Counted from the first letter of the stretch, positions 14,064-62,971 are shown. The stretch: DNA of 64,000 nt from an uncultured Thermoanaerobaculia bacterium (GCA_964650405.1 CAZYTO010000002.1:5164-69163); one strand, 5' to 3'. Translations and numbers: made by a program. Notes: generated from the sequence alone by a model not told the origin.

Positions 14064-14684
14064 TCAGGGCGTCAGCCAGACCGGTCTCGTTTTGGCCAGC
14101 CACGCTTGCCGTTCGGTCAGGCCGATGTAGCCGCCATTGATGGCCTTCGTCACCTTGCGAACGTCGTCGGCATCGGCGAAGGTGTTGCACTTCGAGGCCA
14201 CCCATTCCGCTGCGGCAATGTGGAGGCACCAGTCGGCGCTGAAGGCCAGGTCAGGGTTGGCGGCCAGGTCGGCGCCGAGCTGCTTGCCGTACTTCTCGTA
14301 CGACTCGCGCCCGGTGATCTGCAGCAGGCCGCGGCCGATGTACTTCCAGCCGTCTCCCGGGTCGACGTTCCCCATCCGCCCGCCGTAGACGCTGTTCGCC
14401 AGCGCCTCAGGGTTGTGGGCAAACGGCTGCGCATCCTCGAGCGTTTTGAACCGGGTTGGCCAGACATCGAGCAGGCGTTCCGCGCGGTAGTTCAGGCTCT
14501 CGGTGGTGATCGTGAACGCTCCGCTCTCATGAAGGATCTGGGCCATGAAGTGCGCCAGGCGGAGTCCGGAGTCGTTGATCCCGTACTGCACCAGTACGGC
14601 ATCGGCCTTCGCAAATCCGTCCCGGTAGTTCGGGAGCATCTTCGGAGCGAGACGCTGGAGCTGGTCCGTGGTGACTGAAATCAT
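14064..14684 (-). CDS. glycoside hydrolase family 19 (chitinase/lysozyme-like)
   Basis: LAHFMAQILHESGAF, GRGLLQITGRESY, TKAINGG motifs; start at internal ATG 14684. Confidence 0.75.
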   Translation of the reverse strand: MISVTTDQLQRLAPKMLPNYRDGFAKADAVLVQYGINDSGLRLAHFMAQILHESGAFTITTESLNYRAERLLDVWPTRFKTLEDAQPFAHNPEALANSVYGGRMGNVDPGDGWKYIGRGLLQITGRESYEKYGKQLGADLAANPDLAFSADWCLHIAAAEWVASKCNTFADADDVRKVTKAINGGYIGLTERQAWLAKTRPVWLTP

Positions 14685-14846
14685 GCGCGGATCATATGTC
14701 CAGCGGTCGTCGTCTCGGCGTCCCCGTGCGAGCCGTCTTCGATCAGCATCGCAACGAGATGGGGAGCGAGTCGATCCACACTCTCCATGTTGAAGAGCTG
14801 GACTGCTCAACCAGCCGGCAGGATGAAGCCGCTGGCCTATGGGCGC

Positions 14847-15308
14847 GCAGACCTCGATCCGAGCATCTGTCGCATCGCTGAAACACGCTGACGCATCGAT
14901 GGAACAGCCCTAGAACCGCATGCCACCAAGTGTGACATGCATATCTAGCAGTGTTACATCCATGCCACAAGTTGTGGCATGGATGTAACACTTCCAGACA
15001 TCGATGTGACTCTTCCAGGAATCGATGCCTGCGACGTAGATATCGATGCCTACAGCGTAGATATTGATGCCTACAGCGTAGACATTGATGCCTAGGAACC
15101 AGGTATCGATGCCTACAGCGTAGACATTGGTGCCTGCGACGTAGGTATCGATGCCCGCGGCCCTGAGCTCGAGGCCTACGGCGTAGGCGTTCATGCCTAC
15201 CGCCTGAACGCTGGCGCCTGCTGCCCAGACATCATCACCAACATTCCGGATCTCGTTCCCAGCACCGTCGACATCCGCGCCCGGAATGTAGACGTCCAGC
15301 CAGACGGC
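14847..15308. repeat. tandem array of 22 phased 21-bp units (core AGACATCGATGCC)
   Basis: Unit starts at 14847+21n checked by hand (14868 ... 14994, 15015, 15036 ...); near-identical units GTAGAYATYGATGCCTACAGC; local GC drop. Confidence 0.85.
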
Positions 15309-15546
15309 ACTGGAGAAAACGGCGACTCTTCCCCCCTGCGTTCTCCGCCTCTCCGCGTGAGCCGTCTTCAATCAGCCACCCGAACGAGATGGGAAGCAAA
15401 TCGACCGACACCTTCGATGTTGAAGGGCGACTAGACCGGGCGGCTTCCAGGCGCCCTGACGTGGAGGAGCGGCAGGATGCCGCTCAGCCAGCCGGCAGGA
15501 TGCCGACGCTCCGATGCGGCGCTCCGGTGTCCTCCGCTGTGCGGCC

Positions 15547-16110
15547 TCAGGCTTTGGGTGGTCGTCGCCGCCGGCCTCCGCCCGCCCTGCCGGGCGATGC
15601 CGTAGCGGAGGTCGATCGCGCCTTCTCGTACTCGGCGATGTAGAGCTTTGCCGGCAGGCGGCGGATGGCCTCACCGAGGACGTCGAGCGGCAGATCGTCC
15701 AGCCGCTTGAAGCGGATGCACGCCTTCCCCATGTCGAGCTTCTTCCCGGTGGCGGCCCAGGCGCCGCGGAACCACCTCACCAGGGACGTGTCGCTGACAC
15801 CCTCGACGCAGCCGCAGTAGAGACCCATGAGATAGACGGACATGTACTGCTTCTGCGACGCCAGCGCGGCGAAGGGAAGCCCCTGGCGTGGATCGGTGTG
15901 ATAGCCGGCCGGAAACACGCGATGGGGAACGTAGTAGCCGATCATCCCGTACGACATCCCCTCCTCGTAGTCCGAGTCGAGGTTGCGGAGGATCACGTCC
16001 CGTACGGCTGCCAGCGCCGTCCGGCGCTCCGGCGGAAGTGAGGCGAGATACTCCGCGACGGTCGTGGCTTTGCTCAGCATGGGAGTAAGGATACTGCTGG
16101 CACCCTTCAT
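15547..16110 (-). CDS. DUF1801 (YdhG-like) domain protein
   Basis: TVAEYLASLPPERRTALAAVRDVILRNL motif; ATG overlaps the sigma-factor stop (ATGA). Confidence 0.6.
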   Translation of the reverse strand: MKGASSILTPMLSKATTVAEYLASLPPERRTALAAVRDVILRNLDSDYEEGMSYGMIGYYVPHRVFPAGYHTDPRQGLPFAALASQKQYMSVYLMGLYCGCVEGVSDTSLVRWFRGAWAATGKKLDMGKACIRFKRLDDLPLDVLGEAIRRLPAKLYIAEYEKARSTSATASPGRAGGGRRRRPPKA

Positions 16111-17401: not shown

Positions 17402-17532
17402 AGGGTAAGTGGGTAGTGGTTAGTGGTTAGGACGCCTAACCTCGCAACCCCCTAACCTCGCAACCCCCTAACCTCGCAACCCCCTAACCTCGCAACCTCG
17501 CAACCCTGCAACCCCGCAACACCGCAACACCG
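17402..17532. repeat. intergenic microsatellite block (GGTTAGT heptamers facing CCTAACCTCGCAACCC 16-mers)
   Basis: GGGTAAG TGGGTAG TGGTTAG TGGTTAGG ACG CCTAACC...; the 16-mer repeats about 4 times, then CGCAAC octamers. Confidence 0.8.
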
Positions 17533-17536
17533 AAAC

Positions 17537-20172: not shown

Positions 20173-20205
20173 GTGCTGAGTTTTGAGTGCCGAGTGCCGA
20201 GTGCA
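20173..20205. repeat. GAGTGCC-family heptamer tract
   Basis: GTGCTGA GTTTTGA GTGCCGA GTGCCGA GTGCAC just 3' of the GH1 gene. Confidence 0.7.
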
Positions 20206-22079: not shown

Positions 22080-22154
22080 GCAAGGTGTGTACGGGTCGCA
22101 TCCCGGCCACCGAATGCGCAGGAGGTGAATTCGACGTAAAGCCGGAGGGGGAGA

Positions 22155-22228
22155 GCCGAGTGCTGAGTGCCGAGGTGAAACGGCATGAGGCATGGTCGCC
22201 GTCTCGGCACTCGGCACTCGGCACTCGC
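22155..22228. repeat. hairpin of GAGTGCC / GGCACTC heptamer arms
   Basis: GCCGAGTGCTGAGTGCCGAG ... 28-nt loop with GGCATGAGGCATGG ... CTCGGCACTCGGCACTCGGCACTCGC. Confidence 0.8.
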
Positions 22229-23856: not shown

Positions 23857-23993
23857 GCGGGTACCAGGTACCAGTTGCCGGGTACCTCATTTCGTTACCC
23901 GGTACGCGTTACCCGGTACCCGTTACCCCGTACCTGTTACCCGGCACCCGTTACCCCGTACCTGTTACCCGGCACCCGTTACCTGTTACCCGG
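23857..23993. repeat. GGTACC/GTTACCC microsatellite block including a 28-bp unit duplicated in tandem
   Basis: CCCGTTACCCCGTACCTGTTACCCGGCA occurs twice in tandem, flanked by GGTACC-containing arms; between convergent genes. Confidence 0.8.
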
Positions 23994-24010
23994 TTCCGCC
24001 TCCGGCGCGA

Positions 24011-30171: not shown

Positions 30172-30210
30172 GGGGAGAAACCGGTGCGCCGCGGGTAACG
30201 GCTGGGGCGC

Positions 30211-30287
30211 GGCACTCGGCACTCAGCACTCGGCACTCAGCACTCGGCACTCAGCACTCGGCACTCGGCACTCGGCACTCGGCACTC
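30211..30287. repeat. 11 tandem heptamers (GGCACTC/AGCACTC) upstream of polA
   Basis: Exactly 77 nt = 11 units by hand count; ends 16 nt before the polA ATG. Confidence 0.9.
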
Positions 30288-32974: not shown

Positions 32975-33034
32975 GCGAGTGCTGAGTGCCGAGTGCCGAG
33001 CCGGCATGAGGCATGAGTGATGAGGCATGAGAGG
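32975..33034. repeat. inverted GAGTGCC heptamers followed by GGCATGAG-type repeats
   Basis: GCGAGTGCTGAGTGCCGAGTGCCGAG then CCGGCATGAGGCATGAGTGATGAGGCATGAGAGG, starting 2 nt after the polA stop. Confidence 0.85.
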
Positions 33035-35755: not shown

Positions 35756-35862
35756 GAGAGTGGTTAGGTGAGAGTGGTTAGTGGTTAGAAGAGAGTGGTT
35801 CGGCTCCGTGGTCAGCCTAATCCCAACCACCCTAACCACTAACCACTAACCACTAACCACTC
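35756..35862. repeat. hairpin of GGTTAGT / ACTAACC heptamer arms
   Basis: Left arm 35756-35800, 16-nt spacer, right arm 35817-35862 (CTAACCACTAACCACTAACCACTAACCAC); overlaps the last codons of the DUF72 gene. Confidence 0.85.
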
Positions 35863-38494: not shown

Positions 38495-38557
38495 GACACT
38501 CAGCACTCAGCACTCGGCACTCAGCACTCAGCACTCAGCACTCGGCACTCAGGACTC
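38495..38557. repeat. 9 tandem heptamers (RGCACTC) ending next to a start codon
   Basis: GACACTC AGCACTC AGCACTC GGCACTC AGCACTC AGCACTC AGCACTC GGCACTC AGGACTC, then TCAT ATG. Confidence 0.9.
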
Positions 38558-47976: not shown

Positions 47977-49026
47977 TCAGAAGCGCCCGGACGACGTCAC
48001 GAACCCCTGTTGCGCCTCGTAGGTCGAGGCGCGGTAGTTCGACATCAACAGCAGGCGTGTCATGACCTTCCGGGCCTTGGCCGGTCCGACCATCTTCACT
48101 TCGAACCCGGCCGGGAAATGCGGAAAGTTCGTATCGGCCACGGCGTAAGCGAACACGGGGAGGCGGAGGGGGAAGGGCTTGACCGGCTTATCGGGCGCAA
48201 AGGCGATGGAGTAGTCCATCTTCCCGGAGATGCGTCCGCCGAGGAGCTCGGGAAAGAGGCTCTTCGTGGTGTTGATGTTGATCTTCGGAGTCTTGAGCGG
48301 CGCGGCGAAGGCTCCTGCCTTGGCAATGTTGAGATCGTAGAAGGCCTGGGTCACGGGCTGGGTGGTATCCCCCGCCGTGTCGCTATTGGCGGCGATGACC
48401 TTCGGGGGCACGACCTGGCGCTGGGCATGCGTCAGGGTACTGAGCTGGAAGTAGTCCGCATATTCGACGCTCGTGCTCTCCACCAGGTCGAGCGTGATGC
48501 CGGTGCCGCCGAAGCTGCGCTTGGCGTTCGGCGAGAGAAAGAAGTACTCGAAGCGGTAGCGGTCGATGAGCATCTCCACGTCGGGCGTCTTGGGGTTGTT
48601 GTCGTCGTCGTAGAAGACCGACAGCGGGGAGAGTTGCCGGGCGATGAGGAGCGAGTTGCCGGTCAGGCGGTTCGAGCCGTTCCCCGTGTCCGGCTCGATC
48701 GTCGTCGTGGTGCTGTCGATGATGGGCAGGAGCGTATCCGCCCAGACCGGCTGGGCCGGCGGAAGCTGCAGCGCCGAGCGGTAGCCGGCGCCGGTGGCAT
48801 CCTCCTGGAAGGCCGTGCGCGTCTGCAGGATCTCGGTCTGGATGGTATTCACCCCGCGCTCGGTCATGATCGTCAGGTCGTTGTGACTCTCGTTGAACAG
48901 CGTGAGATGCAGCGTCCTCTCGATCATCGAGTAGACGATAATCATCAGCCCCGAGAAGATGATCAGCGTCACCAGGATCTCGGGAAGGGACATGCCGCGT
49001 TGCGCGCGTCGCCGTCTTGCTGTCAT
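47977..49026 (-). CDS. prepilin-type N-terminal cleavage/methylation protein (PilW/GspJ-like minor pseudopilin)
   Basis: Leader MTARRRRAQRG then MSLPEILVTLIIFSGLMIIV (G-1, E+5). Confidence 0.7.
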   Translation of the reverse strand: MTARRRRAQRGMSLPEILVTLIIFSGLMIIVYSMIERTLHLTLFNESHNDLTIMTERGVNTIQTEILQTRTAFQEDATGAGYRSALQLPPAQPVWADTLLPIIDSTTTTIEPDTGNGSNRLTGNSLLIARQLSPLSVFYDDDNNPKTPDVEMLIDRYRFEYFFLSPNAKRSFGGTGITLDLVESTSVEYADYFQLSTLTHAQRQVVPPKVIAANSDTAGDTTQPVTQAFYDLNIAKAGAFAAPLKTPKININTTKSLFPELLGGRISGKMDYSIAFAPDKPVKPFPLRLPVFAYAVADTNFPHFPAGFEVKMVGPAKARKVMTRLLLMSNYRASTYEAQQGFVTSSGRF

Positions 49027-49029
49027 GGC

Positions 49030-52000
49030 TTACCTCTTGAGGAAGACGCGGTACTGGTGGAACGAGTAGTGGAGGGGAATGGTGTCGCGGTAGGCCTCCA
49101 CGCGCACGACGTAGTTGCCTTTGGGGAACGTGGCCGCGGGCACGCTCCACGCGTAGGAGGACAGCGTGGTCAGGTAATTCGGATCGGTGGGTTTCACGCC
49201 CGGTGTGGCCGGCGTGCCGTCGAACATGGACAGCCAGGACTTGCCGTTGTCTCGGCTGTACATGAGCACGTAGCTGACCGTGGTGTCCTCGGCGAACGTA
49301 TTGCTGTAGGCCGGGGTATACGGGAGGCCGTCCCAGCGCAGCCATTGCGTCGTCCAGGCCACGCTCAGCGAAGAGATGTTGTCCGTATTGGTCGAGTCGT
49401 TCGGCGACGTGATCGAGACGCGCGGCAGCTCACGGACGCGCGAGTCGTCCGGCTTGTTGGCGGCGTTCTTCAACAGGCCCCCGGCCATGTAGCTCTGCAC
49501 CAGGCTGAGGAACGACCAGCGGGCGATGAACGACACGCCTGACTCGCCGGTGGGCGACAGGCCGTTGACCACCACGAAGGCGGCATCATTGCCGTCTTTC
49601 GCCGCCAGCAGGGAGCTCGACTGGATGTTCGTCGAGTGCTTGTAGTAGTGCGCCAGCGCCGTCAGGGTCATGGTGTTGCCATAGACCGGCTGCAGGAAGT
49701 GGTCGGGGTTCATCGTCGTGTCGTTGATGTTGACGTCGAATGGCCGCGCGCTGGGGATGGTGTCCGCCAGGGGGAAGTTGTACGTCGACCGGATGTCCTT
49801 GCCGTCCGTGTCGATGTTGCTGTCGGTGCCGTCCTGGTAGCGGTGGTGGAAGGTCGACTTCGACGAGCCGCTCCAGAAGAAGGTCGTGCTCCCCTGGGCG
49901 TTGGTGCGGCGCACGGCGTCGGTGAGGTCCGTACCGAAGGGAAGGTTGGAGGTGATGTTGCCGCGCAGCGCGCGGGAGTATTTGCCGGCACCCGTCCCCG
50001 TCGGCAGGTTACCGGTGGTCGACCAGGTGGCCCACTGGGAGTCGGGAGCCAGCTCTCCCAGCCAGGAGAGCGACCACCAGTAATTCGCGGCCGTGGAGTT
50101 GTCGCGGATGTACTTCACGCCGCCCGGGATGGTGTTGATGGTGGCATTGGTGATCGACTGTTCGTAACGGGTGTTGGTCGTTCCGTCGAACGGCTTCGAA
50201 GACACCGGGATACTGTTGGCGAAACCGTTCGCGCTGTCGTAGCCGATTTCGTTCCCGATGCCGACGTAGTAGTAAGAGAAGCCGGTCATCGTGGTGTAGA
50301 CGGAATGCGAGCGCACCACGGCCTGCCGGAGGACCTGGAACATGCGGTGGATGTCGATCTCCAGCGTGCCGTTCCCGGTGTCCCAGCCGTCGTTGTCGTT
50401 GGTCGAGTCGGCGGCGTTGTTCTTGACGCCGTAGTAGTTGCCGCTGCCGGCCGGCGCGTCATAAGACCAGCCCGGCCAGGAGGCGATGTTGTTGCCGGCA
50501 GCCGAGTCGAAGTCCTCGAAATAGCGGTTGTAGCCCATGCCCAACTGATTGGCGCGGGCGCGGCCCGAGCCGAGGTGCGGCATCTTCACGTCGGCATACG
50601 GGCAGTGGCGCGGATCGCCCAGGAACTGGAAGCGCTCCGTGACCGGCATGTTGGGGTCATTCGTGGCATCGCCGTAGAGCCATGTGTCCGTGCCGCGCCA
50701 GGCGTAGGTGCGGGAGAGGTTCGTCGGCGCGTTGCCCGGCGGCGGATAGACCGTTCCGGTGGTGATGTCCGAGCCGATGCGGGTCTCGATGGTGAGCATG
50801 GCATTGGCGGGTAACTGTGCGGACGGAATCTGGATGATCCAGCGGGCCGTGTTCTTCTCGACGTCGCCGGCGGTGGAGAGGTCGGTCTGGAACGGATTGG
50901 GAGGTGCGCCCCCGGTGAGGTCCTCGACCGGCGCGGGGATGTACTCCAGCCCGTACAACTGCCGGGTCGTATTCAGTCCCCCCTGCTTGCAGGGCTTCGT
51001 GTTGTCGTCGGTGACGCACGGCGCCTTCAGGGGCGAGTTGTAGAGGCTGAAGATCGTGTCGCCGCCGGCGATCGTCCACGACCACCACATCTTGTTCGCG
51101 CCGGACGTCGTCGAAGCGAGCTGGTCGGTGTACGGATCGGGGCTGCCGTTACCGTCGAAATCGACGCCTCCCGTCACGGCCACGACACTGTTGGGAGTGG
51201 GGGCCAGCGTCACGCCCTTCACCGTGACGGTGATGGGGGTCGAGCCGGCTACGCCCTTGCCCAGCCAGTCCGGCACGGTGGCCGGGTTGGGGGCATTGTG
51301 GTACGAGTAGACGCGCAGCGAGACGTTGTCCGTGTTCGCGTAGTGCAGGTTGTCGGGGTGCGTGACGACGCGGATGTTGGCGTACTTGGACGGGTCCTTC
51401 GCCGCGTCGGAGTAATTGCGAACGGGCGGGAACGGGAACAGCTCGCCGTGCAGGTTGATGACCATGGCGTTGCGGTATTTGTTCGGATGCATGTACATGT
51501 CATCGAGCAGGAGGCGCAGGGTGGGCTCCGTCTTCGACTCCAGGCCCACGGCCACGCGGGCATTGAAGAGGTTCAGCTCGTCCTGGTAGCGCATGCCGTT
51601 GTTGTACTGATCGGCGAGCGAGTACGGGAGCTGGTTCTCCTTGACGTCATAGCCGTTGGTGACGCTGCCGTCGACGTTGACGCGGCCGGTGAAGAAATCG
51701 GGCGGGTAGTAATTGTCGACCGCGGAGCCGCTGGGCATCATGCCGGGATAGAAATAGACCGAGTCGATGGGCTGATTGGAGTCGGCGGCCTTGTTGACAT
51801 ACGGCGTGTAATACGGATCGCGCCCGTACGAAAGCTTGCGGATCCAGTGGCGGCGGAACTGCAGTCCGGGCTGGCGGGACTCCAGGTCGTTCATGGCGCT
51901 TTCGACGTACGGGACGATGTTCTGCATGTACAGCCACCATCCCGGGATGTTCTCGATGGCCACGAGATAAATGTCGTAGACCTGCGTCGGCGGCGTGTTC

Positions 52001-52470
52001 TGTCCGATGGTGCTCAGGACGCTGGCCACCTCGGCGAGCAGGCGCGGACCGCCGTCCAGGTTGACGAAAACCTTCACGTTTACGATGCGCAGGTCGCTGG
52101 CGCCGGGAACCTTCTGCACCGTCACGCGGCGCTCGTAGAGCCACTTGTTGTTGCCGATGAACGTGTTGCCGCTGAGGGTGACGCTCGGATCGGTGACGCT
52201 CTTGTCCGTGGTGAGCACAGGCTGGTTCACCACGCCGTCATCGTAGGCGTCGAGCATGTTGATGTTCGTCGCGTCCTGCGTCTGGACGAGCGCCCGCAGC
52301 TCCTCCAGCATGGAAATGGCCTTCTGTGTGGCGAACTGCTTGTTGATGTTGTCCTGCGTGGCCCGGTAGGACGTGTTGACCAGCCGCATCGAGAACGCGA
52401 TCGTCATGCCGATGATGGCCAGGGCTACGACCGCTTCTGCCAGGGACATTCCTCGTTGAAGTCTGCGCAT
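49030..52470 (-). CDS. giant prepilin-type protein (about 1146 aa), unknown extracellular domain
   Basis: Leader MRRLQRG then MSLAEAVVALAIIGMTIAF; GGGGAG 8 nt upstream of ATG 52470; Asn/Thr/Tyr/Trp-rich body. Confidence 0.7.
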   Translation of the reverse strand: MRRLQRGMSLAEAVVALAIIGMTIAFSMRLVNTSYRATQDNINKQFATQKAISMLEELRALVQTQDATNINMLDAYDDGVVNQPVLTTDKSVTDPSVTLSGNTFIGNNKWLYERRVTVQKVPGASDLRIVNVKVFVNLDGGPRLLAEVASVLSTIGQNTPPTQVYDIYLVAIENIPGWWLYMQNIVPYVESAMNDLESRQPGLQFRRHWIRKLSYGRDPYYTPYVNKAADSNQPIDSVYFYPGMMPSGSAVDNYYPPDFFTGRVNVDGSVTNGYDVKENQLPYSLADQYNNGMRYQDELNLFNARVAVGLESKTEPTLRLLLDDMYMHPNKYRNAMVINLHGELFPFPPVRNYSDAAKDPSKYANIRVVTHPDNLHYANTDNVSLRVYSYHNAPNPATVPDWLGKGVAGSTPITVTVKGVTLAPTPNSVVAVTGGVDFDGNGSPDPYTDQLASTTSGANKMWWSWTIAGGDTIFSLYNSPLKAPCVTDDNTKPCKQGGLNTTRQLYGLEYIPAPVEDLTGGAPPNPFQTDLSTAGDVEKNTARWIIQIPSAQLPANAMLTIETRIGSDITTGTVYPPPGNAPTNLSRTYAWRGTDTWLYGDATNDPNMPVTERFQFLGDPRHCPYADVKMPHLGSGRARANQLGMGYNRYFEDFDSAAGNNIASWPGWSYDAPAGSGNYYGVKNNAADSTNDNDGWDTGNGTLEIDIHRMFQVLRQAVVRSHSVYTTMTGFSYYYVGIGNEIGYDSANGFANSIPVSSKPFDGTTNTRYEQSITNATINTIPGGVKYIRDNSTAANYWWSLSWLGELAPDSQWATWSTTGNLPTGTGAGKYSRALRGNITSNLPFGTDLTDAVRRTNAQGSTTFFWSGSSKSTFHHRYQDGTDSNIDTDGKDIRSTYNFPLADTIPSARPFDVNINDTTMNPDHFLQPVYGNTMTLTALAHYYKHSTNIQSSSLLAAKDGNDAAFVVVNGLSPTGESGVSFIARWSFLSLVQSYMAGGLLKNAANKPDDSRVRELPRVSITSPNDSTNTDNISSLSVAWTTQWLRWDGLPYTPAYSNTFAEDTTVSYVLMYSRDNGKSWLSMFDGTPATPGVKPTDPNYLTTLSSYAWSVPAATFPKGNYVVRVEAYRDTIPLHYSFHQYRVFLKR

Positions 52471-52481
52471 GGCTGCTCCCC

Positions 52482-53672
52482 TCATGGAACCCACGGTGTG
52501 CGGCTGAAGTGATAGTTGCCCATCTGCAACTTCACCTGGTCGAGAATGCCGGAGTCGTAATCGATCTCGGAGACGTCGGAGCCGCCGGTCAACTGGACGT
52601 TTCCGTTGACCACCACCGCGCCGCTGATCTGCGTCGGCGGCGACATGACCAGATCGCCGCCCACCCAGACCACGCCGTCATAAAACGTGTTCGACTGGGG
52701 ATTGAGGATGAGGTTCCCCATGACGATCAGGATGCCGCTGCCGCTGAGACGCTTGGTGGGGTTGAAGTTCGCGTTGCCCTTGATGATCACCAGCGACATG
52801 GGCGGGAGGGGGTCGGGAAGCTGGCTTTCGTCGTCGACGACGAGGTCCGCCATGGCCGTCAGCTCCGGCGCCTCCGCCCCGAAGACCTTGTTCAAGGCGA
52901 AGGAGCCGGAGGTCGAGCTCAGGGCCGGATTGCCGGTGACCGTTCCCAGGAACTTCGGAGAAGTGCCCGTGCCGTAAGCGACGCCGATGCCTGTGCTGCC
53001 GCCGATGACGCGGCCGGCCTTGGCGATGTTCATCTTGCCGCTGTCCGCGCCGCTGAGCGCGGCGTTGGCCGGAAGCAACAGGCTCATTCGCTGCACTTCA
53101 TTGCGCAGCGTGGCCTGGGTGATGATCGTATTGCCCCCCAGTCCCGGCCCCTGTGTACTGTCGTTCTGGATGTAGATGATCCCGTGCGAGGTGAGCTGCC
53201 AGATCGTCCCGGGCTGCGGTTTGCCGCGGCGCTGGCTGACGTCGAGCACCTCCGCCTTCCGCACTTCATAGCGCGCGAAGACCCGCGCCTGCCCCATCAC
53301 TTCGTACGTGCGCACCAGTCCGATCTTCGGGTCCTCGGTTTCATTGATGGGAGGGACGTGGGGAGGGGTATGCGGGCAGACGCCGTTCGGATCGAGGTCC
53401 GGCGCAAACGTCGTCACGGGCTGCTGCTTCTGGTGGATATACCAGGACAGCGAATTGGTAAGGCCCGCCGAGGCCGCGTTCTCGGCCTGCCCCTGGTAGG
53501 CGAGCTGCCGCGCCACGAAGCGGCCCGACGTGGCCGTAATGGTCAGCGTCGTGAGGAGCAGCAGCAGCAACAGCGTCGCCGCAAACAGGACGAGAGCCAG
53601 GGCAATGCCGCGCTCTTTGCGGCCTGCTCTCCGCCGTCGCGTCCGACCTTTGGTTTTGTCCCCAGGGCACAT
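52482..53672 (-). CDS. PilX/GspK-like pseudopilin
   Basis: KERGIALALVLFAATLLLL N-terminus without Glu+5, QAENAASAGL helix; GGAGG 8 nt upstream of ATG 53672. Confidence 0.6.
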   Translation of the reverse strand: MCPGDKTKGRTRRRRAGRKERGIALALVLFAATLLLLLLLTTLTITATSGRFVARQLAYQGQAENAASAGLTNSLSWYIHQKQQPVTTFAPDLDPNGVCPHTPPHVPPINETEDPKIGLVRTYEVMGQARVFARYEVRKAEVLDVSQRRGKPQPGTIWQLTSHGIIYIQNDSTQGPGLGGNTIITQATLRNEVQRMSLLLPANAALSGADSGKMNIAKAGRVIGGSTGIGVAYGTGTSPKFLGTVTGNPALSSTSGSFALNKVFGAEAPELTAMADLVVDDESQLPDPLPPMSLVIIKGNANFNPTKRLSGSGILIVMGNLILNPQSNTFYDGVVWVGGDLVMSPPTQISGAVVVNGNVQLTGGSDVSEIDYDSGILDQVKLQMGNYHFSRTPWVP

Positions 53673-53801
53673 AGGACACACCTCCACCGTTCGGTCCGAA
53701 AACCGCATCGATACTTTTCTTTTGTGCAAACCGTCTTTGCTGAAAACGGGTTGCCGGGACCCCCAGTGAATGACCGCCGGCGTCGACGAAACCGTTCAAA
53801 C

Positions 53802-62191: not shown

Positions 62192-62395
62192 GGAGTGGCA
62201 GCATTCAGCAACGGGAACCACCCGGAAAGTGTTGACGAAGCCGAGAACGACGTCGAGGCAGATCGAGCGGCGAGTCGCCGCCGGGTCCACCATTCGCCGA
62301 TCCGTCGACTCGCGCTCCCCGGCTCGCGGGAGCGGTCCAGTCCGGCAGAGAACACAAGATATGAGGGCGGGGGGGCAAGCCAACGCCCGCTCCGG

Positions 62396-62584
62396 CCGGA
62401 CATTCACGCCGTCGCGCCAGATATCAATGTCTGACGCCCAGACATGAATGGCTCCCGTCCAGACATGAATGGGTCCCATCCAGACAACGATGTCTGGCGC
62501 TCAGACATTAACGAGCGGCTGCCAGACATGAACGATCCGGCTGCAGACATCAATGTCTGCGCGCCAGACATGAATGTCAGGATT
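62396..62584. repeat. tandem array of 9 phased 21-bp units (core CCAGACATGAATG)
   Basis: Unit starts 62396, 62417, 62438, 62459, 62480, 62501, 62522, 62543, 62564, checked by hand. Confidence 0.9.
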
Positions 62585-62971
62585 TTCCCCAGGGCAGGAA
62601 GAAATATGATTACGGCAACGCTGTTACGGGAAGTTCACAACTCTCACAGTTATTCGGCGTCAAAAACACGCGAATAAGCGCTCCGCAACTCCCGCTCACG
62701 TTGTTGTCGATCTCACGCAGAAACAGTTAGTTACCAGCAGTCTTGCGTTCGTGGTTTGTGGCGGTATGGACGGCGAGGTGGAATACCATCACAAGAAAGT
62801 TGAATCCAAAATGCGCGTTCCTACGCTTTTCTAATAGAGGGCAAACCGCCTTCGGCGAGAGCGGCGCACCGGCTTGCTTCAGAAGAACTGAACCTGGAAC
62901 AACCCCCCGCCTGCCCCTGTTGAGCAAATCGTACCGATGTGGTACGGTTTCGCTCCTTTTTGGGTAGCCGA

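Follow-up and report, generated by a model that had tools for sequence, protein, structure and literature searches.

Does a strictly phased 21-bp tandem repeat lying between two co-directional genes encode a heptad protein, serve as a platform for DNA-binding proteins, or persist as a satellite? We addressed this question for a repeat, called array 1, in a stretch of 64,000 nucleotides from an uncultured Thermoanaerobaculia bacterium (hereafter, the window). The features at the locus are as follows.

14064-14684, minus strand: GH19 'lytic enzyme' gene (Pfam PF00182), downstream of array 1
14713-14846, minus strand: R1, flanking direct repeat on the GH19 side of array 1
14847-15308, no strand assigned: array 1, 22 unit positions of a 21-bp phased tandem repeat
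15342-15522, minus strand: R2, second copy of the flanking direct repeat, with a 53-bp insertion
15547-16110, minus strand: DUF1801 gene (Pfam PF08818), upstream of array 1 and co-directional with GH19

An earlier note on this DNA had described 22 phased 21-bp units in a low-GC pocket, and both parts of that description held. Base identity within array 1 was 0.56, 0.52 and 0.51 at lags of 21, 42 and 63, compared with 0.17-0.33 at the other lags between 1 and 69. When scored against the consensus GTAGACATCGATGCCTACAGC, 18 of the 22 units, all in one register, matched at 11 or more of 21 positions, a score with a background probability of 0.0115 per position; a single off-register position in the array reached it. 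Tandem Repeats Finder returned a period of 21 together with a 63-bp super-period, and a repeat search found eight copies spaced by exactly 21 bp. The units abut one another, with no spacers. GC content is 0.48-0.55 across 14850-15149, versus 0.61-0.76 in the flanks. Conservation peaks at 15015-15203 and decays outward toward GC-rich sequence resembling the rest of the genome, with the phase kept. Two of the four central units that had been called near-identical fit GTAGAYATYGATGCCTACAGC exactly; the next two match it at 16-17 of 21 positions. A scan for sigma-70 promoters and terminators found no sites. Rfam gave no match in the window at the gathering threshold and, when an E-value threshold was used, only spurious matches to miRNA hairpins (E > 0.003).

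The units are dyad-symmetric. Each consists of an imperfect 18-bp palindrome with the core AGRYAT-NN-ATRYCT, plus a 3-bp linker; an example from array 1 is GTAGATAT-CG-ATGCCTAC followed by the linker AGC. In all well-preserved units, the reverse complement of the consensus aligns at the same offset, -3. The arms are 7-8 bp long and the centre 2 nt. Many units run from GTAG to CTAC, and others begin with CCAG, TTAG, GGAG or GAAG. The linker varies, while a contiguous AT-rich block of about 13 bp (13-14 bp) is conserved. Conservation lies at the level of the DNA motif, in support of the earlier note: mean unit entropy by codon phase was 1.12, 0.95 and 1.08, revealing no three-base periodicity.

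Array 1 is made of two inverted arms. This corrects the earlier description: the six leftmost units are degenerate, inverted and joined to the remainder through a hairpin.

14847-14972, minus strand: short degenerate arm, six units in inverted orientation
14950-14992, no strand assigned: junction hairpin between the arms, a perfect 20-bp stem with a 3-nt loop, centred on 14971
14994-15308, plus strand: main arm, 15 units of the palindrome GTAGAYATCGATGCCTAC (or CCAG...CTGG) plus a 3-bp linker

The inversion is evident as an inverted repeat (I1) in which 14928-14970 is 84% complementary to 14972-15014, and self-BLAST of 14928-15014 against the opposite strand gave E = 3e-20. As DNA, the junction hairpin folds at -27.4 kcal/mol (z = -6.0). 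The RNA fold computed for the entire array contains this hairpin too and is far better than that of shuffled sequences (z = -8.4), an automatic outcome of the array's symmetry. Hairpins of single units are weak, at -0.6 to -4 kcal/mol. We also compared G·U with A·C asymmetry, and the folding energies of the two strands in relation to the direction of the genes; the outcomes were inconsistent and revealed no transcribed strand.

A second array lies within the window.

62396-62584, plus strand: array 2, nine units of 21 bp with the conserved block CCAGACATNAATG

Array 2 is flanked by the genes for a 4HBT thioesterase and an Rrf2-type regulator, which both lie on the plus strand. A representative unit is CCAGACAA-CG-ATGTCTGG; units 2, 5 and 8 are full palindromes, CAGAYATNNATGTCTG, which creates a 63-bp super-period. 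The earlier assertion that this array has the same core and orientation as array 1 is well supported, as three consecutive phased copies of SYAGAYATNNATG occur in arrays 1 and 2 only, with none expected. Allowing at most one mismatch, AGACATNNATG has 24 matches in the window compared with 5.7 expected, and 20 of the 24 fall in the two arrays. The dyad motif AGRYATNNATRYCT, at the same stringency, is more restricted still: its 14 matches in the 64 kb (0.34 expected) are all inside the two arrays, and no single dyad site was found elsewhere in the window. Apart from multiples of a 7-bp repeat, a lag scan of the whole window detected just two arrays with a 21-bp period, namely array 1 and 62334-62629. 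The two arrays share nine specified bases, for which simple arithmetic, allowing 21 registers and two orientations, gives a chance of about 1.6e-4; outside this core they differ. Between array 2 and the Rrf2-type gene, we also noted 340 bp (62600-62940) with 49-53% GC and no convincing ORF. Rfam found nothing in this interval, which may hold a promoter, a leader or an unannotated RNA.

Arrays of this kind are not limited to the window. The earlier note had proposed looking for arrays of the motif with 21-bp spacing in the genome and in related genomes. Scanning public metagenome contigs with the three-unit phased pattern yielded more than 120 matches, most of them unrelated low-GC coding repeats. 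Arrays resembling arrays 1 and 2 were present on eleven high-GC contigs (L140, L150, L153, L163, L170, L171, L204, L205, L211, L218 and L239). As L170 and L204 represent one orthologous locus, these contigs count as about ten loci; a further sequence from a separate ENA record, L244, is the same locus as L140. The metagenome arrays contain 9-22 units with a strict 21-bp period, palindromic arms and the centre CATCGATG or CATGAATG, a shared core that is partly circular because the left half-site and ATG are fixed in the pattern used for the search. Several of them flip orientation at junction units that are perfect palindromes. Arm positions are complementary at 5-7 of 8 in 11 of 12 array consensus units, and positions 2/17 and 5/14 covary between arrays.

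The related arrays are also connected by longer similarities. The unit TTAGATATCGATGTCTCCGGC is found at three unrelated loci, with 84-86% identity over 250-290 bp; L205 matches array 1 with E = 7e-15; and L171 is akin to array 2 (CCAGAYATTCATGGCTC). The neighbouring genes are functionally unrelated and include mraZ/M20 peptidase, MFS, bPH_2, M28 peptidase, Band_7, TPR and rplU-rpmA (L21/L27) genes. No gene that could encode a candidate binding protein or regulator recurs beside the arrays. At the orthologous locus, L170 and L204 differ by 42 bp, exactly two units, and by orientation changes of single units, within surrounding DNA that is about 87-91% identical. This two-unit difference indicates VNTR behaviour, seen at this one orthologous pair. 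Thus, the arrays form a dispersed family that shares a period and a core, the latter in part imposed by the search, and varies by whole units.

Other collections lacked such arrays. None was present in about 65 kb surrounding GH19 homologues in named Acidobacteriota, and array 1 had no match in 72,556 plasmid records, 50,697 phage records or a viral contig collection. When genome contigs were searched with the two-unit pattern AGAYATNNATG-N10-AGAYATNNATG, which is itself AT-rich, only single chance matches in AT-rich genomes were obtained. The sequence L123 (JGI Ga0495540_0069998) carries at positions 1-340 a looser array of 21/22 bp built from another dyad unit, CCGTAYGCGYATGG; the array lies upstream of the gene found ahead of GH19. 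Judging from this sequence, a period of about 21 bp may be shared more widely than the particular core.

We also examined the DNA flanking array 1. The GH19 protein has 1742 homologues, those from named organisms belonging to Thermoanaerobaculia, Pyrinomonadaceae and Blastocatellia, which makes an Acidobacteriota origin of the window probable. The best homologue, at L123, is 89% identical over the full length, which fixes the GH19 start at 14684. R1 and R2 are 78% identical over 87 bp (E = 3e-14) and 81% identical over a further 43 bp. Within R1, a 35-codon ORF on the minus strand (14685-14790), MESVDRLAPHLVAMLIEDGSHGDAETTTAGHMIRA, ends in an ATGA overlap with the GH19 start; the copy in R2 is frameshifted. 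This ORF could be a leader peptide or a gene remnant. At L123, the closest relative locus, a gene of at least 216 codons lies directly upstream of GH19 and likewise overlaps it through ATGA. We considered whether R1 and R2 are remnants of that gene and rejected the idea, as only about 17 bp beside the GH19 start is common to both. The possibility that flanking direct repeats are a general mark of insertion was also discarded: they occur only at array 1 and at none of the 10 other arrays examined. The earlier note had missed these flanking repeats, as well as the palindromic units, the inverted arms and the fact that an open frame is to be expected in a 21-bp array.

What might such arrays do? 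That they are dispersed, dyad-symmetric, phase-locked, non-coding and variable by whole units follows from the results given here. The full explanation we prefer, tentatively and at somewhat below even probability, adds a function: most likely the arrays are phased platforms of operator-like sites for a dimeric DNA-binding protein, a candidate role that, taken specifically, we hold a shade more cautiously. The family is dispersed in a putative lineage of high-GC soil bacteria, and the AT-rich 18-bp palindrome with its 3-bp linker places one dyad at every two helical turns, along one face of the DNA. Arrays would grow and shrink by whole units through slippage or unequal recombination, orientation flips at the palindromic cores would produce the inverted arms, and outer units would decay toward the GC content of the genome. 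The 153-codon frame discussed below (ORF153) and the heptads read on both strands are by-products of a palindromic unit that lacks stops and has a length divisible by three. The protein dimer, whose gene would lie elsewhere, would coat the phased sites cooperatively in the intergenic space between co-directional genes. A cooperative regulator array was one of the possibilities raised in the earlier note for cores on one face of the DNA; it is possible, and it is the one we favour, while the iteron and centromere readings offered beside it are unsupported.

Several features favour protein binding over hairpins: the single-unit hairpins are weak, it is the sequence of the half-sites and not mere complementarity that is common between arrays, the spacing is exactly 21 bp, or two helical turns, and the conserved AT-rich block of 13-14 bp is contiguous, with a variable linker. 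Other observations weigh against a platform. We found no candidate binding protein and no regulator gene recurring beside the arrays. A global regulator should have some single operators, so their absence from the 64 kb argues against this role, and the covariation of positions 2/17 and 5/14 is more readily explained by base-pairing or arm-swapping than by a fixed protein contact. The idea of one family must also contend with the looser array and different unit at L123, the array-free named Acidobacteriota loci (about 65 kb) and the partial circularity of the shared core.

A more ambitious version, which we regard as improbable, is a lineage-specific DNA-organising system, in which a dimeric protein nucleates on the phased palindromes and coats dozens of intergenic sites. 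Its role could be that of an insulator, a silencer or a device that structures the chromosome, and the effect would be tuned by the length of the array. If so, the arrays would represent a new class of bacterial chromosomal cis-element that is neither REP, iteron nor operator. Should a cognate binding protein exist, the family would give access to a new layer of genome organisation or regulation in little-studied, largely uncultured soil bacteria. Without one, the arrays would still serve as highly variable markers for distinguishing strains, and would be recognised as a cause of false gene calls and of problems in assembly.

Among the alternatives, one that we consider unlikely while giving it real weight is that the arrays are functionless or selfish minisatellites. 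An AT-rich palindromic seed would have been expanded by slippage and tolerated in intergenic DNA, with the dyads and inverted arms arising as by-products of template switching at palindromes. The whole-unit change in copy number between L170 and L204, the drift of edge units toward genomic GC with the phase kept, and the homogenised centre all recall bacterial VNTRs and minisatellites. The lack of conserved gene context, the array-free 65 kb or so of related named genomes and the occurrence at L123 of a different unit with a similar period also fit. However, independent satellites should share no core, and arrays 1 and 2 share nine bases at the low chance probability given above. One unit recurs at three unrelated loci with 84-86% identity, and AT-rich cores persist in a genome of 66% GC. 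A core common to unrelated loci and genomes, together with a dyad unit, is unexpected for products of independent slippage.

We think it slightly less probable that the arrays are REP/BIME-like elements, the units of which would form hairpins in single-stranded DNA or in a transcript (acting in 3′-end protection, termination, insulation, or gyrase or IHF binding) and would have spread through a RAYT (REP-associated tyrosine transposase)-like enzyme or recombination. REPs are imperfect palindromes of 20-40 bp, have stems of 6-13 bp and loops of 2-3 nt, show complementary stem changes between subfamilies, and are occasionally clustered in tandem (PMC3733652). Like them, the present units are short imperfect intergenic palindromes: the 18-bp dyad qualifies as a palindrome of this type, and its 7-8 bp arms and 2-nt centre lie within the published stem and loop sizes (PMC3733652). 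The GTAG at the start and CTAC at the end of many units, the covariation of arm positions between arrays, the fold of the whole array (z = -8.4 versus shuffles), the intergenic site between co-directional genes and the occurrence of unit TTAGATATCGATGTCTCCGGC at unrelated loci are also in keeping with this reading. Against it, the single-unit hairpins are marginal, the stems being AT-rich, and GTAG is paired with CTAC inside the stem, so that the unpaired terminal GTAG (or CGTC) tag of REPs is absent. Moreover, the 64 kb contained no singletons or dimers, let alone high-copy near-identical ones; units occur only in long, strict 21-bp head-to-tail arrays, while head-to-tail dimers are rare in most REP families (PMC3733652), and the unit sequence differs between the two arrays of one genome. 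The window encodes no Y1 or RAYT transposase, and folding energies show no consistent strand bias relative to gene direction.

In their way of working, the arrays would most resemble REP clusters or the protein-binding arrays of centromeres and iterons, but they lack defining features of both classes. The literature on tandem palindromic intergenic repeats in Acidobacteria that we searched consisted of a REP survey (PMC3733652) and papers on heptamer repeats, in other phyla. We rate the family as a variant of the dispersed bacterial palindromic or minisatellite repeats. Its hallmarks are a period of 21 bp, the dyad AGRYAT-NN-ATRYCT, arms in opposite orientation and a copy number that changes by whole units, and it is absent from Rfam and from the literature searched.

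The genes around the arrays bear on a further proposal, that of an iteron or centromere-like (parC/sopC-type) array belonging to an integrated plasmid or a secondary origin. The window is ordinary housekeeping chromosome. It includes genes for a trmFO/gidA-like protein, a Crp-family regulator, an AcrAB-type pump (acrB), polA, selB, PLP enzymes, plsY, glyQS, ppdK, a LigD primase-polymerase and an ECF sigma factor. We found no Rep, ParA/ParB, RHH partition, relaxase, integrase, transposase (including Y1/RAYT) or cas domain in the 64 kb, no phage genes near array 1 and no DnaA boxes.

In plasmids, the R6K gamma origin has seven iterons of 22 bp, sopC of F comprises 12 repeats of 43 bp with an inverted repeat in each unit, and centromere repeat arrays include parC of R1 and pSK41. 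The present arrays resemble these by analogy: they are contiguous direct repeats of a size within the 17-22 bp range of tandem iterons, at about two helical turns, and the dyad in each unit would be bindable by a dimer, which makes cooperative coating of one face plausible. Iteron origins also have an adjacent rep initiator gene, DnaA boxes and an AT-rich unwinding element; the 64 kb contain no rep gene and no DnaA boxes, nor the linked parA/parB or parR-type genes of centromeres. With two arrays 47 kb apart in a housekeeping context, similar ones dispersed at many unrelated chromosomal loci and no match in the plasmid and phage records or viral contigs, this proposal is largely refuted and, in our judgement, very improbable. 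CRISPR arrays also consist of regularly spaced, partly palindromic repeats of at least 21 bp; array 1 differs in having no spacers or cas genes, and its unit sequence degenerates along the array.

Finally, we asked whether array 1 encodes a protein. The open frame is the following.

14910-15371, minus strand: ORF153, 153 aa with a TTG start, a stop-free frame carried by the repeat

The earlier note had reported this frame and considered coding doubtful, and both its description and its doubt proved sound. The TTG directly follows a TGA and has no AGGAGG upstream, and the repeat register carries on for 63 bp after the stop. Pfam gave no match for ORF153, and no homologue at E ≤ 1e-3 was present among 5.8e9 proteins. 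An exhaustive HMMER search against 1.84e9 representatives gave 350 weak matches of about 30% identity, which we rejected as homologues because, when inspected, they turned out to be unrelated 21-bp satellites in translation or low-complexity tracts of heptads. Both candidate frames have an unusual GC3 (0.66 in ORF153 and 0.62 in the plus-strand frame, within 0.62-0.69 overall) compared with 0.83-0.91 in the neighbouring genes, and the plus-strand frame is interrupted by three stops.

The heptads themselves have a simple origin. The minus strand reads as AVGI[DN]xY (for example, AVGIDIY) and the plus frame as xDIDAxx (for example, VDIDAYS); such similar heptads on both strands follow from dyad symmetry and the inverted arms. 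A profile built from seven heptad translations retrieved one predicted protein only, itself an ORF over the array at L140/L244. In the related arrays, heptad frames on both strands point outwards from the array centre, with up to 5-7 ORFs over one array. Because a stop-free unit with a length that is a multiple of three keeps its frame open throughout, an open frame across a 21-bp array is expected: the probability that a random unit of 21 bp contains no stop in a given frame is (61/64)^7 = 0.71. A true heptad-repeat protein, whether ORF153 or the plus-strand xDIDAxx frame, is thus highly improbable, even though the 153-codon frame exists, the period is strictly 21 bp and, at positions 6 and 9 of the unit, the Y changes leave the plus-frame amino acid unaltered. 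We conclude with high confidence that array 1 is a non-coding element. The 153-codon heptad ORF is an annotation trap: when a palindromic unit of 21 bp contains no stop, its two strands are read as similar heptads.

Short repeats of other kinds also populate the window. The heptamer GAGTGCC (canonical form ACTCGGC) forms intergenic tandem arrays at 20185-20204, 22151-22174, 22203-22227, 30210-30287 and 32976-33000, one of which has 11 copies directly upstream of polA, and one inverted pair is separated by 28 bp. A near-variant, CACTCAG, is repeated 8.7 times at 38497-38557, upstream of a Cys/Met PLP enzyme gene. Between the selB and DUF72 genes, AGTGGTT (35759-35800) and CTAACCA (4.3 copies, 35832-35861) constitute an inverted pair that would form a long hairpin. 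At L119 (12127-12187), GTTGTCG (3.9 copies) and CCGACAA (4.3 copies) are similarly paired upstream of an asparagine synthase gene, extending the phenomenon to a named Thermoanaerobaculia genome.

These heptamer arrays resemble the paired tandem heptamer or octamer 'global regulator sites' of Geobacter metallireducens (PMC2700814) and the intergenic TAACTGA heptamer repeats of Beggiatoaceae and cyanobacteria (PMC4679880). Like arrays 1 and 2, those families consist of short tandem repeats that occur between genes across the genome, frequently in inverted pairs with one member on each strand; they differ in being 7-8 bp and non-palindromic, whereas the present arrays have 9-22 units of a 21-bp palindrome plus linker.

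Two further tandem arrays were noted: an 8/16-bp array at 17435-17536, CCTAACCTCGCAACCC in five copies, between ECF sigma (DUF6596) and YCII genes, and a 14/28-bp array at 23893-23994, CGTTACCCGGTACC in seven copies, beside a phosphodiesterase gene. In the relatives L119-L122, which comprise a Thermoanaerobaculia MAG (GCA_035636095.1) and metagenome copies, the GH19 gene overlaps the stop of a GvpL/GvpF-family gene that is preceded by a gene for a GvpA-like protein of 97 aa and an ORF of 46-51 aa (the whole cluster at about 4714-6666 in L119), an unusual combination of a gas-vesicle-protein-like trio with a muramidase-like enzyme in one operon. On the minus strand of the window, 47977-53795 contains three consecutive ORFs of 350, 1215 and 437 aa with high GC3, no Pfam domain and an unusually low first-position GC of 0.56-0.60. 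The interval 3-1977 holds an APH-type phosphotransferase gene and, after it, a gene encoding a HopA1 effector-family domain (E = 2.7e-28), which one would not expect in the chromosome of a soil bacterium resembling Acidobacteriota.
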